From NCBI GenBank assembly GCA_018003655.1, contig JAGNDY010000005.1, positions 1-54,966 on the forward strand: a stretch of DNA of 54,966 nucleotides, in the 5' to 3' direction. The position numbers and the translations under genes are program-made. A model generated the notes under the pieces. It did not search any database. It was not told where the DNA came from and saw only the letters and a program-made list of their open reading frames with translations. The DNA comes from Candidatus Nanopelagicales bacterium (lineage in GTDB: Bacteria; Actinomycetota; Actinomycetes; S36-B12; UBA10799). Shown one piece after another: positions 18,401 to 23,213 of the stretch. The first letter of the stretch is position 1, and each line of letters begins with the position of its first letter.

Positions 18401-18826
18401 TCATCCACCGACTTTCTTGGCGCAGTCGCCACAGACTCCATGTAGTACCAAGTGCCCGACGTCGGCGATGAAGCCGGATTGCTCCGCCACCGCAGACACC
18501 ATCGGGTCCAACGTCGCCGCATCGATTTGCGATACCCGGTCACAACGTCGGCAAACCAGATGTATATGTGGGCGCTCGTCAATCGAGTGGTACGTCGGTG
18601 AGCCCTGCCCCAAGTGAGCGTGCGTGATCAGGCCGACGTCGTCGAGCAATTCCAGCGTTCGATAGACCGTTGACAAGTCGATAGCCGAACCGCGCCGACC
18701 CGCCTCGGCGAACACCTGGTCGGGGGTTGCGTGACGCACCTCGGCGATGACCTCCAACACGAGGATCCGCTGCGAGGTCGCCCGATGGCCGCGTGCCCGC
18801 AGTTGCTCTGCCCACCGATCGGACAT
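18401..18826 (-). CDS. Fur-family metalloregulator
   Basis: Winged helix (RATSQRILVLEVI...STVYRTLELLDDVGLI), a His-rich site HAHLGQGSPTYH, and two CxxC pairs (CRRC, CGDC). Start ATG 18826. Confidence 0.85.
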   Translation of the reverse strand: MSDRWAEQLRARGHRATSQRILVLEVIAEVRHATPDQVFAEAGRRGSAIDLSTVYRTLELLDDVGLITHAHLGQGSPTYHSIDERPHIHLVCRRCDRVSQIDAATLDPMVSAVAEQSGFIADVGHLVLHGVCGDCAKKVGG

Positions 18827-18836
18827 CTCGCCTCGC

Positions 18837-19373
18837 CTAGTCGACCTTGGCAAGGCGAGCCGACAAGTGGTTGCTCAGCCGCTCGCCAACCGCAGCCATG
18901 TCGAACGCCCAACCGAGATCACCCTCAATGAGGCCGTAGAGGCGGGTGCCACCGTCATACTCCTTGGCCGACTTGCTGCGCGCCACGATGTCGGTCCGTA
19001 GTTCCACCCTCGCGCCGGTGATCCGGGCGTCTTGGATAGCGGTTACTTCGACCTTGCCCTGATAGGTCTCCAGGTGGCCCGTCGAATGTACGAGCATCAC
19101 CTCGACCTCGTTGTCCGGCAGCGGACGCCAATAGCCGGATTCCGACGCGGCTGGCCGGATTCGATTGCCCTGCTCGTCAATGACCCACGAGACGCTGTTG
19201 TAGGTCAGGAACGGTCGCCCGTCAAAGGCGAAGGTCAGTTCCTGCCCGAACCGGAAATCCTCGATGGTGGGGTAGGTCCCGAGGCCGACTCCGACCCATC
19301 TGCCGATCAGCCACGAGAGGGGAACGAGCTGCTCAGGCAACTCGCTGGGTGCGGGCGAGGACTCGGTGCTCAT
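18837..19373 (-). CDS. Nitrobindin/FABP-like heme-binding beta-barrel protein (DUF1794)
   Basis: LSWLIGRWVGVGLGTYPTIEDFRFGQELTF is the family-typical N-terminal signature. 178 aa. Confidence 0.82.
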   Translation of the reverse strand: MSTESSPAPSELPEQLVPLSWLIGRWVGVGLGTYPTIEDFRFGQELTFAFDGRPFLTYNSVSWVIDEQGNRIRPAASESGYWRPLPDNEVEVMLVHSTGHLETYQGKVEVTAIQDARITGARVELRTDIVARSKSAKEYDGGTRLYGLIEGDLGWAFDMAAVGERLSNHLSARLAKVD

Positions 19374-19543
19374 GCGCCGGTCGGGTTAGCGCGGGTCGCC
19401 GGTCTTGTACAACCGGTAGACCACGTAGCCGATGAACCAAGCCGACGCGACAGCAACGAGCACGAGCAGCGACGTGAAGAAGAGTTCAAGCACGCGACCA
19501 GCCTAGCCCGCTAACGACGTCGTGCCTGCGCGAGGATGGGGGA

Positions 19544-19903
19544 ATGCATCGACTAGTTGTCAAGCTGACCGTCGGCGATAGCGAGCCGGAGCGCTGTTCC
19601 CAAGCGTTCTCCGTTGCTGCGGCAGCCATCGCCGCCGGAGCGGACGCGTCGGTCTGGCTGACCGGCGACGCGGTCGGCTTCGCGAAGCCTGGTTTCGCCG
19701 AGGGGTTCACGCTCGCGGATTCGACGTCGATGACCCAACTGCGCGACCTGGTCATGGCGGACGGATTGCTGACGGTCTGCACCCAGTGCGCCCAGCGACG
19801 CTCCCTGACCGCTGCGGACTTCTTGCCAGCCGTCCGGATCGCGGGGTCCGCCGCATTCGTCGAAGAGTGCCTCATCGACGGAACCCAGGCGTTGGTCTAC
19901 TAG
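19544..19903 (+). CDS. DsrE/DsrF-like sulfur-relay family protein
   Basis: 119 aa. MHRLVVKLT...AAAAIAAGADASVWLTGDAV...LTVCTQC is the Rossmann-like DsrE pattern with conserved Cys. Confidence 0.75.
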   Translation: MHRLVVKLTVGDSEPERCSQAFSVAAAAIAAGADASVWLTGDAVGFAKPGFAEGFTLADSTSMTQLRDLVMADGLLTVCTQCAQRRSLTAADFLPAVRIAGSAAFVEECLIDGTQALVY

Positions 19904-19956: not shown

Positions 19957-20256
19957 CTACCCGGGCAGCTCCACCAGTACTTCAGCAATTGCGCCCTGGC
20001 TCGCGACCACGCTGCGGTCGAGGGTTGCACCCGGCGCCAGCATCCGTAGCGTCCAACCTCCCGGGGCCGCGAAGAACCGGAACTGACCTGTGGCACTCGT
20101 CGGAACCTCAGCCGTGAACTCTCCCGTGCTGTCGAGCAGGCGCACGTAAGCGCCACCTAACGGTTCTCCACCGCGGGAGACAACCCCTTGGATCACCGCC
20201 TCCTTGGTGGCATCAATTCCTTCGGTGGACAACCCGCCGGTCGTTGCGCCGCACAT
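19957..20256 (-). CDS. DUF1416 protein (SseC-like), partner of rhodanese
   Basis: About 100 aa starting MCGATTGG... The ATG shares 1 nt with the rhodanese stop. Same pairing as cysA2/sseC2 in M. tuberculosis. Confidence 0.8.
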   Translation of the reverse strand: MCGATTGGLSTEGIDATKEAVIQGVVSRGGEPLGGAYVRLLDSTGEFTAEVPTSATGQFRFFAAPGGWTLRMLAPGATLDRSVVASQGAIAEVLVELPG

Positions 20257-21119
20257 CAGGCCTGGCCCCCCGCTGGAGTCCCCGCGATGGCGCCCTTTTG
20301 GACCGGCACGCCAACCAGGGAGCCGTACTCGGTCCACGATCCGTCGTAGTTGCGCACGTTCTGCAAACCCAGCAGCTCGTGCAGTACGAACCAAGTGTGG
20401 GCAGAGCGCTCGCCGATACGGCAGTAAGCAACCGTGTCCGTTGCCAGGTCGACTCCCTCGGCTTCGTAGAGCGCCGTCAACTCCTCGTCGGAGCGGAAGG
20501 TGCCATCGTCGTTGGCCGCCTTGCTCCACGGGATGTTCGCCGCGGTCGGGATGTGCCCGGCCCGTTGCGACTGCTCCTGCGGCAGGTGGGCCGGCGCCAG
20601 AAGCTTGCCCGAGTATTCATCCGGCGAGCGCACGTCGATGAGGTTTTCGACGCCGATGGCTGCGATGACCTCGTCACGTAGCGCGCGGATCGTGGGGTCC
20701 TGCGGCTGGGCCACGTAGGTGGTTGGCGTGCGCTCCGGCACTTCGGTTACCAGTTCGCGCGAATCCAGCTCCCACTTCTTCCGTCCGCCATCGAGCAGGC
20801 GAACGTCGGGGTGACCGTAGAGCTTGAAGTACCAGTACGCGTATGACGCGAACCAGTTGTTGTTGCCGCCGTAGAGAACGACGGTGTCGTCGTTCGAGAT
20901 TCCCTTGCTGCTGAGCAGCGCCTCGAACTGCTCCTTTGTGACGAAGTCACGACGAACCGGGTCCTGCAGGTCGTCGCGCCAATCTATCCGGACGGCATTG
21001 CGGATGTGGTTCTTCTCGTAGGCGGTGGTGTCCTCATCGACCTCGACGAGGACGATGCTGTCGCCCGCGAGGTTCTCCTCGACCCAATCGGCCGAGACGA
21101 GTGCGGTCTCACGACTCAT
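20256..21119 (-). CDS. Thiosulfate/3-mercaptopyruvate sulfurtransferase (tandem rhodanese)
   Basis: Two rhodanese domains with active-site loop CRIGERSAHTW. SD AGGAGAA lies upstream of ATG 21119. Confidence 0.92.
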   Translation of the reverse strand: MSRETALVSADWVEENLAGDSIVLVEVDEDTTAYEKNHIRNAVRIDWRDDLQDPVRRDFVTKEQFEALLSSKGISNDDTVVLYGGNNNWFASYAYWYFKLYGHPDVRLLDGGRKKWELDSRELVTEVPERTPTTYVAQPQDPTIRALRDEVIAAIGVENLIDVRSPDEYSGKLLAPAHLPQEQSQRAGHIPTAANIPWSKAANDDGTFRSDEELTALYEAEGVDLATDTVAYCRIGERSAHTWFVLHELLGLQNVRNYDGSWTEYGSLVGVPVQKGAIAGTPAGGQA

Positions 21120-21133
21120 GATGTGTTTCTCCT

Positions 21134-21190
21134 TTGATGTCAGGGTGATGCGTTGATGTCAGGGTGATGCCTTGATGTGACTGGATGGGG
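21134..21190. repeat. Three tandem 19-nt units immediately upstream of the rhodanese SD
   Basis: ttgatgtcagggtgatgcg / ttgatgtcagggtgatgcc / ttgatgtgactggatgggg. Confidence 0.85.
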
Positions 21191-21204
21191 CTTGGAAGTG
21201 CTCG

Positions 21205-21696
21205 TCAGCTGGTGGCGACTGCGCCGCGACCGACGCGCTTGATCAGCAGGTACATCTCGCAGCCGAGGCAGAAGTCGAACGCCGTGTTGAGGAACGCTGC
21301 GGCAAGGGCGAGCGCAATCGCGAAGTAGAAGACGATGGACAGGCCAGCAAGTAGGCCGACGAGAGCCACCAGAGCGAAGGCAAGGCCGACCGCCTGGGCG
21401 AACCGCGGTGGCGCCGGGTCCTCAAGCTCTGCCGGGGGGCCCAGTCGTGGCCGGACGAAACGGCGGTAGATCAGGCCATAGGGCTGAGCGTGCAGGCCAA
21501 GAACCGCGCCAGCCGCGAAGGCCAAAGTCTGGATCGCGAGCAGTGCTGCCGATAGTCCTGAGGTGGGTCCGAGCAGCAGGAGCGCTGCCAGCACGGCAGT
21601 GGTGATTCCCGCGCCGAAGCGTGGGCCACGGGGGTCGATACCTCGGACGGGGGTTGTTTGTGGTGAACGTTGAACGGTTTGTGGCGGTGTAGTCAT
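21205..21696 (-). CDS. DUF4395 membrane protein
   Basis: Four hydrophobic helices and a C-terminal FDFCLGCEMY motif. ATG 21696 has SD GAGGGA. Confidence 0.8.
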   Translation of the reverse strand: MTTPPQTVQRSPQTTPVRGIDPRGPRFGAGITTAVLAALLLLGPTSGLSAALLAIQTLAFAAGAVLGLHAQPYGLIYRRFVRPRLGPPAELEDPAPPRFAQAVGLAFALVALVGLLAGLSIVFYFAIALALAAAFLNTAFDFCLGCEMYLLIKRVGRGAVATS

Positions 21697-21730
21697 GATT
21701 CCCTCTGGTCGAAGAGCTGTTCTGTGGCCG

Positions 21731-21750
21731 GCACCGATCAGATTCGGTGC
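21731..21750 (-). promoter_or_regulatory. Perfect 7-bp hairpin in the leader between the Cys-rich sORF and DUF4395
   Basis: gcaccga / tcagat / tcggtgc. It lies 34 nt upstream of the DUF4395 ATG, and one arm overlaps an alternative pairing partner. Confidence 0.3.
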
Positions 21751-21848
21751 TGAACAGCAAGGGCCTCGCCTCGGCACGGTGGCAGGTCACGCGCCGCCTT
21801 CGAGGAGGGGCGCATCCGTGCCGGATCTAGCGAAGGGTCGCTGTCCGG

Positions 21849-21941
21849 TCAGGACATACAGGAACAGGACATACACATGCAGGTAGTGGACAGGCAGAAG
21901 TCGACGGCACGCCGCTTCACCAAGTCAACCTGCTGATCCAT
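21849..21941 (-). CDS. Cys-rich 30-codon small ORF (candidate regulatory leader peptide)
   Basis: Translates as MDQQVDLVKRRAVDFCLSTTCMCMSCSCMS. Five Cys fall in the last 15 codons, three as TGT, a codon expected to be uncommon in such GC-rich DNA. It begins 10 nt after the thioredoxin stop and has no clear SD. Confidence 0.4.
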   Translation of the reverse strand: MDQQVDLVKRRAVDFCLSTTCMCMSCSCMS

Positions 21942-21951
21942 GGGCGGTAGC

Positions 21952-22494
21952 TTAGGACGCTGCCTGGGCTTGACCCAAATCGGGGTCCCCAGCCGACGCA
22001 TCACGTGTTGTCGCCTTCTGCGGCTGACCCTCGACCGGAAGTCCCGAATCGGGCGGAACGACCGCTCCGAGCGCCGCCACAACGTCGGCGAAGCGGGGCT
22101 GACCAGCAGCGCGGTGTGCCACGGCACCGGTGGGTTCCAGGATGAACACGGTCGGTGTCCGCATGACGTTGAATTGGCGGGTCAATTCGAGCTGCGACTC
22201 GGCGTCCACCTCGGCGTAGACCACGCCATCCACCATGTCAGCCACCCGTTCCAGGGTGCGCTTGGTCGCGCGGCACGGCTGGCAGAAGGCGGAGGTGAAC
22301 TGCACCAACGTTGCTGCCGTTCCCAGTTCAACCCCGAGGTCGTGCGCCGTGAAGGCGGGTCTTGCCACCGCAGCGGTGGAGGTGTCAAGGCCCTTGGAAG
22401 CAGCGAATCTGCCGTCGGTTCGTTTGCGCCACAGCCCGAACGCCGTGGCCGCGACCAGAACCGCGACCAGCGCGATGACGCCCGCCGAATTCAT
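21952..22494 (-). CDS. Membrane-anchored thioredoxin-fold protein (ThiX-like)
   Basis: N-terminal TM helix, then a thioredoxin fold with redox motif CQPC ([13 protein letters not shown]). The ATG overlaps the glnR stop (ATGA). Confidence 0.85.
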
Positions 22495-23213
22495 TGGCTG
22501 ACCTCTGTCGTAACCACCGATGTGTGGCTCGCCTCGTCTTTGGGCGGCACCACGAAGCGGTAGCCAACATTGCGTACTGTTCCGATCAACGCCTCATGCT
22601 CAGAGCCGAGTTTGGCCCGTAGACGTCGGACGTGCACGTCGACGGTGCGGGTCCCACCGAAGTAGTCATAACCCCAGACTTCCTGCAACAACTGCGCCCG
22701 GGTGAAGACCCGGCCGGGATGCTGAGCGAGGTATTTGACGAGTTCGAATTCCTTGAAAGTCAGATCGAGCGGATGGTTGCGCAGCCGAGCGGAATAGGTT
22801 GCCTCGTCGATGACCAATTCGCCACCGCGGATCTCGTCCATCCCCGCAGTGGTCGAGGTCGCGGCAATCCGGCCGATCGAGATGCGCAGCCGGGCCTCAA
22901 GTTCGGCGGGTCCAGCCGTATCCAGCACCACGTCGTCCACACCCCAGTCAGCGGTGATCGCGGTGAGTCCACCCTCGGTCACCGCCAAGATCACTGGCAC
23001 GTCGACGCCCGTCGTTCGAATCACTCGGCACAGGCTGCGGACCCTGGGCAGGTCTGCTCGACCGTCCACCAGGATCGCGTCGGTCGGGGGCGCATCGAGG
23101 AGGGCAGCGCCGTCCGCTGGCATCACGCGTACTTGGTGTTGCAACAGACTCAGGGCCGGGAGCACCTGCTCGCTGGGCGCCAGCGCATTGGTGAGCAACA
23201 GCAACGTGCTCAT
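22491..23213 (-). CDS. glnR: GlnR-type orphan OmpR-family response regulator (nitrogen regulator)
   Basis: [30 protein letters not shown]...[20 protein letters not shown] is the atypical receiver, followed by an OmpR winged helix ([15 protein letters not shown]...VRNVGYRF). Adjacent to mshD, as Rv0818 is to Rv0819. Confidence 0.85.

Follow-up and report, generated by a model that had tools for sequence, protein, structure and literature searches.

In Mycobacterium smegmatis, Ms5788A (VSTRLELSLTKRRAVDLCRVAGCCCCCCCC) is a leaderless and translated small open reading frame (sORF) that lies between thiX and the Ms5788-cysA2 operon, and its Cys tract pairs with the Shine-Dalgarno (SD) region of Ms5788 (Canestrari et al., bioRxiv 10.1101/834739; Mol Microbiol 2020). 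What its non-start, frameshift, pairing and deletion mutants do fits a translational attenuator that responds to cysteine and turns on the sulfurtransferase operon under cysteine scarcity (bioRxiv 10.1101/834739), and Rv0815A and three other sORFs of Mycobacterium tuberculosis (Mtb) are now regarded as Cys-responsive attenuators; in full-text literature searches we met no account of this leader from outside mycobacteria. Here we describe a 30-codon minus-strand sORF at the corresponding locus of a Candidatus Nanopelagicales bacterium, an actinobacterium of freshwater type (assembly GCA_018003655.1, contig JAGNDY010000005.1, positions 1 to 54,966; this whole stretch of 54,966 nucleotides is hereafter the window). 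The element is very probably a leaderless, cysteine-responsive, SD-masking translational attenuator of a DUF4395-rhodanese-DUF1416 sulfur operon, homologous to Ms5788A/Rv0815A. A first-pass annotation, made from the sequence of the window alone, had already proposed a cysteine-responsive attenuator equivalent to the mycobacterial polycysteine leader, and homology, synteny and family-wide sequence statistics all support that proposal. For the window itself we observe the homology, conservation of the type expected for translation, a conserved leaderless promoter geometry and a predicted pairing.

The leader and its putative promoter comprise the following:

21849..21941, minus strand: leader sORF, 30 codons plus TGA, MDQQVDLVKRRAVDFCLSTTCMCMSCSCMS (ATG 21941..21939, TGA 21851..21849)
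21900..21917, minus strand: codons K9-R-R-A-V-D14, the conserved family motif, from comparison of 92 unique sORFs
21849..21881, minus strand: candidate sensor and anti-SD tract, TGC ATG TGT ATG TCC TGT TCC TGT ATG TCC TGA, as read from the sequence
21949..21954, minus strand: -10-like hexamer TAAGCT (TANNNT), ending 7 nucleotides (nt) before the sORF ATG

Comparison with the mycobacterial leader

The sORF had been read as running from ATG 21941 to TGA 21849 and encoding the 30-residue peptide given above, and this reading stands, as do the 10 nt placed between the thioredoxin stop codon TAA (21954..21952) and the sORF ATG; the untranslated gap, put at about 150 nt, measures 152 nt (21848..21697) from the sORF stop to the DUF4395 ATG at 21696. 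The Cys are residues 16, 21, 23, 26 and 28, encoded by TGC, TGC, TGT, TGT and TGT, and are separated by 1-4 residues with no CC dipeptide. A 92-residue, GTG-started extension of the same frame (21849..22127) was treated as a chance overlap with the thioredoxin gene.

Gene order at the locus is that of mycobacteria, as the first-pass annotation had said: the thiX-like thioredoxin, sORF, DUF4395, rhodanese and DUF1416 genes correspond to thiX-Ms5788A-Ms5788-cysA2 (Ms5789)-Ms5790, that is, to the order thiX, sORF, small hydrophobic membrane protein, cysA2 rhodanese and next gene that is found with Ms5788A/Rv0815A. The window sORF accordingly lies downstream of a thiX-like gene and directly upstream of a DUF4395-rhodanese operon. 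Like the window sORF, Ms5788A has 30 codons and the pattern L-[TV]-KRRAVD-[LF]-C (LTKRRAVDLC in Ms5788A, LVKRRAVDFC in the window), with Cys at the same five columns; in an alignment anchored on KRRAVD, window Cys columns 7, 12, 14, 17 and 19 are all Cys in Ms5788A. Further points of agreement with Ms5788A/Rv0815A are a -10 hexamer placed for a leaderless start and, as a prediction, pairing between the 3' Cys tract and the SD region downstream. The NCBIfam profile NF042933 (Ms5788A family Cys-rich leader peptide) aligned residues 7-26 of the window peptide with its positions 7-26 of 27 (E = 6.6e-4, 19.3 bits). Peptides from the same locus in relatives scored 38-46.4 bits on this profile, and therefore bridge the window peptide to the curated family. 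By these comparisons the window sORF is a divergent homologue of the Ms5788A/Rv0815A leader peptide.

Unlike Ms5788A, with its eight consecutive Cys, the window sORF has five interspersed ones (C-x4-C-M-C-M-S-C-S-C-M-S), and Leu replaces the Arg that follows the first Cys in Ms5788A. The spacer between sORF and regulated gene is also longer (152 nt vs. 97 nt in M. smegmatis), the tract consists of repeated UGU and UCCUG units where Ms5788A has a UGY run, and the host belongs to a Nanopelagicales-like lineage of metagenome-assembled genomes (MAGs), not to Mycobacterium. That the Cys are interspersed rather than consecutive was correctly seen at first pass, but such spacing is usual outside mycobacteria, where most members have 1-3 Cys. 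A further described relative, the NF042934 domain or Ms4527A (…ARRHVDKRVCSCCCLP, upstream of the Rv2391 homologue), has an RRxVD…C module in common with the window and is likewise a leaderless Cys-rich sORF upstream of sulfur-assimilation genes; its downstream operon differs from that of the window. No second Cys-leader was found in the window, which holds a single RRxVD-type sORF and a single Cys-rich sORF with a leaderless-type -10.

The leader family in Actinomycetota

For comparison we took 80 loci from genomes and 80 from metagenomes that encode DUF4395 relatives; 70 of the latter had enough upstream DNA. Of the genome loci, 43 of 80 had an sORF upstream that matched M-x(5-9)-L-T-K-R-R-A-V-D-x-C-R-x(5)-C-x(3)-stop, as had 53 of those 70 metagenome loci; the sources were Nocardioides, Microbispora, Kitasatospora, Spirillospora, Pseudonocardiales, Nanopelagicales MAGs and others; the 92 unique sORFs are the basis of the family codon and promoter counts below. 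Where the sORF was present in genome loci, a rhodanese gene usually followed (36 of 42 loci, vs. 2 of the 33 without the sORF; Fisher P = 9e-13). Canonical members outside mycobacteria, such as MSSTMLTKRRAVDHCRVRSSLCRMS (Nocardioides) and MSSQVSLTKRRAVDLCRVATCLCMS (locus L130), carry the motif as in the window and share with it the 14 codons from K to an invariant TGT, the leaderless -10 geometry, the ...TCC TGA ending and the placement upstream of DUF4395-rhodanese.

A group of Propionibacteriaceae-type loci (L004, L008, L011, L021, L024, L028, L033-L035 and L069) is without a KRRAVD leader upstream of DUF4395. These loci carry unrelated poly-Cys sORFs instead (e.g., MHTSLRLAVTQSYGNAPLCMCCCRKS and MSASVYTIVRPACCRMRMCCR) that match no NCBIfam model, and whose poly-Cys runs are TGT-rich and end in TGT CGC/CGT. 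Judged from their sequences, they look like an independent replacement of the leader at the same locus, and the UGU-rich runs followed by CGN in these unrelated leaders hint at convergent selection for UGU.

Among the 92 unique sORFs the motif residues L, R, R and D never vary, and 88 keep the V. Positional entropy in the KRRAVD codons is about 0 bits at first and second positions and 0.8-1.7 bits at third positions. The check for conserved codons with synonymous drift thus came out in favor of a translated ORF: because the KRRAVD residues are fixed while third positions drift, the sORF appears to be translated under amino-acid selection. A hairpin in the KRRAVD-coding RNA was considered as the cause of motif conservation and rejected, since third-position choices of relatives (R1 CGC, V GTG) would break the hairpin of the window. 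Beyond column 14 the family is variable, with C-terminal tails of 0-10 codons and 1-5 Cys per sORF.

Codon usage at column 14 itself follows another pattern. This Cys (window 21875..21873), 14 codons after K, is encoded by TGT in 89 of 89 unique sORFs of GC-rich Actinomycetota, and the remaining Cys codons of the family sORFs are TGC in 105 of 110 cases (about 95%); the codon after the invariant TGT is usually CGN, often the rare CGA. In 66 of the 92 sORFs the stop comes four codons after the column-14 TGT, TCC TGA being the commonest ending, and by our own reckoning of footprint size a ribosome with the column-14 codon in its A site would cover the terminal UCCUGA. Within the window alone these codons are not striking. 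The early supposition that TGT would be uncommon in such DNA fails, as TGT accounts for 26 of the 113 Cys codons (23%) in the long ORFs of the window, and three TGT among five Cys codons would arise by chance with P of about 0.08, unremarkable alone; on these counts, the TGT signal seems to gain meaning only at the family level. For the wobble U of the invariant UGU, an A is the predicted partner in 55 of 72 leaders, at sites that differ between subfamilies, and the invariance of UGU (with its CGN successor) may be caused either by decoding kinetics or by pairing. Three loci (L044, L098 and L099) have a TGA stop at column 14, which leaves a truncated leader with one Cys; these are either decayed sensors or leaders with another mode of control.

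The window belongs to a lineage in which this ending has been enlarged. Its closest canonical relatives end in ACC TGC CTC TGT ATG TCC TGA (L130), while the window reads ACC TGC ATG TGT ATG TCC TGT TCC TGT ATG TCC TGA, an L130-type ending with an additional 15 nt (CSCMS) that triples both the TGT codon (21875..21873, 21866..21864 and 21860..21858) and the UCCUG unit, of which the tract has three. With five Cys, the window-type sORF is at the maximum of the sample, and its eight codons from column 14 to the stop are unique among the 92 (mode 4); the extension is fixed in all close relatives (L081-L087, whose DUF4395 proteins are 82-99% identical). The tract is locally AT-rich, as had been noted (45% GC vs. 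63% for the whole window). Its internal repetition, also noted at first pass, is evident by eye and against relatives, but Tandem Repeats Finder finds no repeat, the tract being too short.

One interpretation of the sensor, which we offer tentatively and hold to be rather doubtful, is that it has two parts, a nascent-chain module (L-T-K-R-R-A-V-D) and one obligatorily wobble-read UGU, in place of simple counting of Cys codons. With the sensor codon in the A site, LTKRRAVD would by our own estimate lie about 8-14 residues from the peptidyl-transferase center, deep in the exit tunnel, where the motif would slow the ribosome, or prime it, and one hungry codon would then be enough; the three-fold amplification of UGU/UCCUG in the window lineage would then retune sensitivity. 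LTKRRAVD is conserved at the amino-acid level, at a fixed distance from the UGU.

The promoter geometry is likewise a property of the family. Of the 92 sORFs, 75 (82%) have a TANNNT hexamer whose end is 6-7 nt upstream of an in-frame ATG/GTG, vs. 0.8% of all ATG/GTG in the same loci. In the window the TAA of the TAAGCT hexamer doubles as the thioredoxin stop codon, the hexamer is invariant in close relatives, and no GGAG, GAGG or AGGA occurs in the 48 nt upstream of the sORF start. The geometry suggests that the sORF is probably leaderless, its transcript starting at the A of ATG 21941, and that the first-pass annotation was probably mistaken in placing the sORF within a longer transcript. Transcription of the glnR-like/thioredoxin pair may nonetheless read through into the sORF, because no terminator separates that pair from the sORF. 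A scan for E. coli-type -35/-10 promoters gave no match; such a scan is uninformative for actinobacterial promoters.

Constraint at shorter distance was measured by comparing the window with L081 and L082, whose DUF4395 proteins are 90% and 82% identical to that of the window. Nucleotide identity was 97-98% in the sORF vs. 76-90% in the flanking genes, and third-position identity 93-100% vs. 54-77%; the spacer (21697..21848) was 97% identical to that of L081 and 86% to that of L082. The Cys tract is 100% invariant in L081-L087 and the ribosome-binding site (RBS) of DUF4395 is invariant in close relatives, and both changes in the L082 sORF are non-synonymous. Because third positions are kept and the L082 changes are non-synonymous, constraint within this close clade appears to act on the RNA sequence, as would suit an element whose nucleotides nearly all serve in a codon, in pairing, or in both. 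A metagenome scan added one further near-identical locus (L087), all other matches having at most 69% identity, so that no leaders at intermediate distance turned up for the analysis of covariation.

Predicted RNA pairing and the proposed switch

The 265-nt leader was predicted to fold at -106.4 kcal/mol (z = -3.2 vs. dinucleotide shuffles), with these parts:

21860..21876, minus strand: Cys-tract arm of a predicted long-range helix (minimum free energy (MFE) fold and partition function, pair probabilities about 0.5-0.99)
21687..21705, minus strand: DUF4395 ribosome-binding region, with SD GAGGGA 21705..21700, ATG 21696..21694 and the first codons
21717..21725, minus strand: alternative Cys-tract partner ACAGAACAG, predicted to pair with CUGUUC-C-UGU (RNAalifold consensus; invariant in relatives)
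21697..21848, minus strand: structured spacer, 152 nt, with hairpin 21750..21731 and helix 21823..21816 : 21779..21772 (z-score -3.0)

In the MFE fold 21876..21860 (G UGU A-GUC-UG-UUCCU) pairs with 21703..21687 (GGGAA-CA-GAC-UACAC), covering the SD, the AUG and codons 2-3. It is this predicted pairing, missed in the first-pass annotation, that matches the published mechanism. The RNAalifold consensus of the window and three relatives places 21876..21868 on the start-codon region and 21867..21858 on 21725..21717, and has the SD form a small local hairpin. Sequestration of the RBS is common to the two predicted versions, in which the Cys tract closes the domain. We estimated the cost of opening the SD and AUG at 8.2 kcal/mol in the free leader, and then modeled a stalled ribosome by forcing a footprint of roughly 30 nt to be unpaired in the fold: the cost fell to 5.1 kcal/mol with the A site at the second UGU and to 4.3 kcal/mol at the third, and, for an A site on the stop codon, stood at 7.4 kcal/mol. 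The pairing between tract and RBS is thus predicted to loosen when a ribosome stalls at UGU. Across the family, a CCUGA sORF tail was associated with CAGG in the RBS (45 of 52 vs. 14 of 37, P = 3e-6), and cognate tail:RBS duplexes were better than those with permuted partners (z = -4.2), none of 5000 permutations being as good.

The switch that had been proposed within the spacer fared less well. Its 7-bp hairpin (21750..21744 : 21737..21731) exists and is part of the MFE fold, which also contains the helix 21823..21816 : 21779..21772, and the competing partner GGUGCCGG is present at 21735..21728. The proposed alternation between them is unsupported: a G-to-A change in L082 at 21821, in the CCGGCACGG segment, breaks both pairings. 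More generally, about 9 of the 12 L082 substitutions at paired positions break predicted pairs. No intrinsic terminator was found on the minus strand in 21100..22600, where the hairpin 21750..21731 is followed by CGGCCACAG. A scan of 21000..22600 against Rfam 15 at E up to 10 gave chance-level matches only, the best being isrG at 17.9 bits vs. 100, in the thioredoxin gene.

In many relatives (e.g., L055/L074/L077 and Nocardioides-type loci) the first sORF codons are complementary to the region of the invariant UGU, e.g., CGACAGAGC with GCUCUGUCG. The 5' end of the leaderless mRNA is thus a possible third pairing partner, absent from the published model.

In the mechanism we propose, transcription would begin at the A of ATG 21941, directed by the -10 element TAAGCT that overlaps the thioredoxin stop, and the sORF would be translated leaderless. 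In the free RNA its 3' Cys/Met/Ser tract, with three UGU codons each beside a UCCUG anti-SD unit, would pair over a long range with the DUF4395 SD and AUG, or alternatively with ACAGAACAG just upstream, and this helix would keep initiation at DUF4395 off; rhodanese and DUF1416 would follow DUF4395 by polarity or coupling. When Cys-tRNA(Cys) is scarce, ribosomes would wait at UGU, their footprint covering the tract, so that the RBS would be freed and the operon translated; when cysteine is plentiful, the ribosome would terminate and leave and the helix would re-form. Cysteine responsiveness, and dependence on sORF translation and on the RNA duplex, would be expected here by analogy with M. smegmatis, the only organism in which they have been shown.

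As in the trpL, hisL and leuL leaders and in the ermCL and cat leaders, ribosome dwell on leader codons would choose between RNA pairings, and as in ermC the proposed output is an exposed downstream SD. Unlike those classical leaders, the window leader has no terminator/antiterminator and has a leaderless type of start, and the putative sensor of its family is one conserved Cys codon that is read by wobble (and tripled here), where those leaders use a codon run or a nascent chain with bound drug.

Several results weigh against this attenuator. The 19.3 bits of the window peptide are below the 45-bit membership cut-off of NF042933, and on NF042934 (cis_reg_atten, putative leader peptide) it reached 15.7 bits, under the 27-bit cut-off; consecutive Cys are absent, so that the sORF falls outside the operational definition of Canestrari et al. 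2020 (at least two consecutive Cys codons). The MFE and RNAalifold structures disagree as to whether the SD is paired with the Cys tract or held in a local hairpin, and the RBS is still partly sequestered under the stalled-ribosome constraints. Taken locally, the tail:RBS duplex of the window is no better than composition-matched (mononucleotide) shuffles (z = -0.34), the energies of the family duplexes do not differ significantly from shuffles (median z = -0.45), a comparison that told less than the permutation of cognate partners, and at least four tail:RBS pairs are predicted in the leaders of only 24 of 41 relatives. No compensatory base changes were found in four close relatives, and covariation therefore lends the structure no support; the Fisher and permutation tests used above ignore phylogenetic non-independence. 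Because the peptide falls short on the HMM cut-off and on consecutive Cys while locus, motif and Cys positions agree, we file the window element as a variant of the known mechanism, neither a recognized member nor something new.

Competing explanations and the wider locus

It is unlikely that control is instead mainly transcriptional or exerted on RNA stability, with Rho terminating transcription, or RNases attacking the RNA, in the untranslated spacer and DUF4395, as a function of sORF and DUF4395 translation and not of SD masking. The spacer, at 152 nt, is long, C-rich in places and strongly conserved, which would suit such a mode, but the leader minus strand has no intrinsic terminator, and the co-variation of tail and RBS is what SD masking predicts. 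From the mycobacterial work, evidence again falls on both sides: adding an independent SD at Ms5788 abolished cysteine control, arguing for control of initiation (bioRxiv 10.1101/834739), while the same authors put control of the downstream cysA2 down to polarity (bioRxiv 10.1101/834739) and leave transcriptional vs. translational mode undetermined for other Cys-responsive operons.

Still less probable is a stand-alone thiol-, persulfide- or metal-binding small protein that acts with DUF4395 and rhodanese, the position of its sORF reflecting co-expression rather than cis-regulation. Such a protein would account for amino-acid-level selection on L-T-K-R-R-A-V-D, which a pure codon counter does not need, and the sORF does accompany DUF4395 plus rhodanese, the former with an invariant C-L-G-C-E motif. 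Yet it is the Cys-bearing C-terminal part that varies (1-5 Cys, tails of 0-10 codons), three sORFs stop at column 14, and close relatives show constraint on the nucleotides and not on the peptide. In M. smegmatis, deletion of the sORF derepresses the operon and a frameshift in the tract abolishes cis regulation (bioRxiv 10.1101/834739); the Mtb counterparts are thought to be unstable. A RiPP-type (ribosomally synthesized and post-translationally modified peptide) precursor can be all but set aside: a conserved N-terminal motif with a variable S/T/C-rich C-terminus, as leader and core, is the general shape of such precursors, but the sORF is linked both with the following gene's RBS and with a leaderless-type promoter, cis-regulation has experimental precedent, and no maturase-type gene is nearby, the neighbors being GlnR-type regulator, thioredoxin, DUF4395, rhodanese, DUF1416, DsrE-like, nitrobindin-like and Fur genes, in keeping with the earlier statement that modification enzymes are lacking there. 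Neither of these alternatives, both of which the first-pass annotation had raised, is therefore favored over SD-masking attenuation.

The genes around the sORF, named in the first pass as thioredoxin, DUF4395, tandem rhodanese and DUF1416, were confirmed by Pfam:

21205..21696, minus strand: DUF4395 membrane protein gene, 163 residues (Pfam PF14340, E = 3e-43)
20256..21119, minus strand: two-domain rhodanese, CysA2-like thiosulfate / 3-mercaptopyruvate sulfurtransferase (Pfam PF00581 twice, NCBIfam NF008557)
19957..20256, minus strand: DUF1416 protein gene, SseC-like (Pfam PF07210), its ATG overlapping the rhodanese TGA (TGATG)
21952..22494, minus strand: thiX-like thioredoxin-fold gene, upstream of the sORF (Pfam PF00085 and gene calls in relatives)

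DUF4395 is the proposed first regulated gene of the operon, and its product is the counterpart of Ms5788, a hydrophobic protein of 159 residues (Canestrari et al., bioRxiv 10.1101/834739). The protein has F-x-x-C-L-G-C-E near its C-terminus as well as P-P-R-F-A-Q, both invariant across 18 diverse homologues; from its sequence, such a CxxC, in a membrane protein encoded alongside a sulfurtransferase, suggests that thiols or persulfides are relayed. DUF4395 genes that no rhodanese gene follows as a rule have no leader sORF. The DUF1416 gene is called likewise in relatives. The 85-nt spacer between DUF4395 and rhodanese (21120..21204) is only 53-61% identical to that of close relatives, vs. 86-98% for the leader, and the conserved regulatory RNA therefore appears to be confined to the leader.

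The thioredoxin gene is probably context, outside the regulated unit; thiX of M. smegmatis has been described as transcriptionally independent of Ms5788A. In the window, the thioredoxin ATG overlaps the TGA of the GlnR-type response-regulator gene by 4 nt (ATGA, 22491..22494), and because of this overlap the two genes look translationally coupled. Upstream lie genes for an MshD-like acetyltransferase and polyphosphate kinase. Downstream of the operon lie a divergently oriented, plus-strand DsrE-like gene (19544..19903), a nitrobindin-like THAP4_heme-bd gene (19373..18837) and a Fur-family gene (18853..18401), as seen in 18401..19903 and in relatives L081-L085. The wider synteny resembles the glnR-mshD region of mycobacteria.

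If the window element is an attenuator of the Ms5788A type, as we think very probable, a device proven only in mycobacteria would reach to an uncultured and distant lineage of actinobacteria and to many further Actinomycetota, which suggests that cysteine or sulfur supply is sensed directly, across the phylum, by ribosomes on a leaderless mini-ORF. For genome annotation it matters that the window sORF falls under the curated HMM cut-offs. The comparison supplies testable rules for the family, namely the leaderless promoter geometry, the peptide motif at a fixed distance from an invariant UGU, and the anti-SD overlapping the stop codon, and the tripled UGU/UCCUG unit of this lineage would serve as a natural variant for learning how the response threshold depends on which sensor codons there are and how many.

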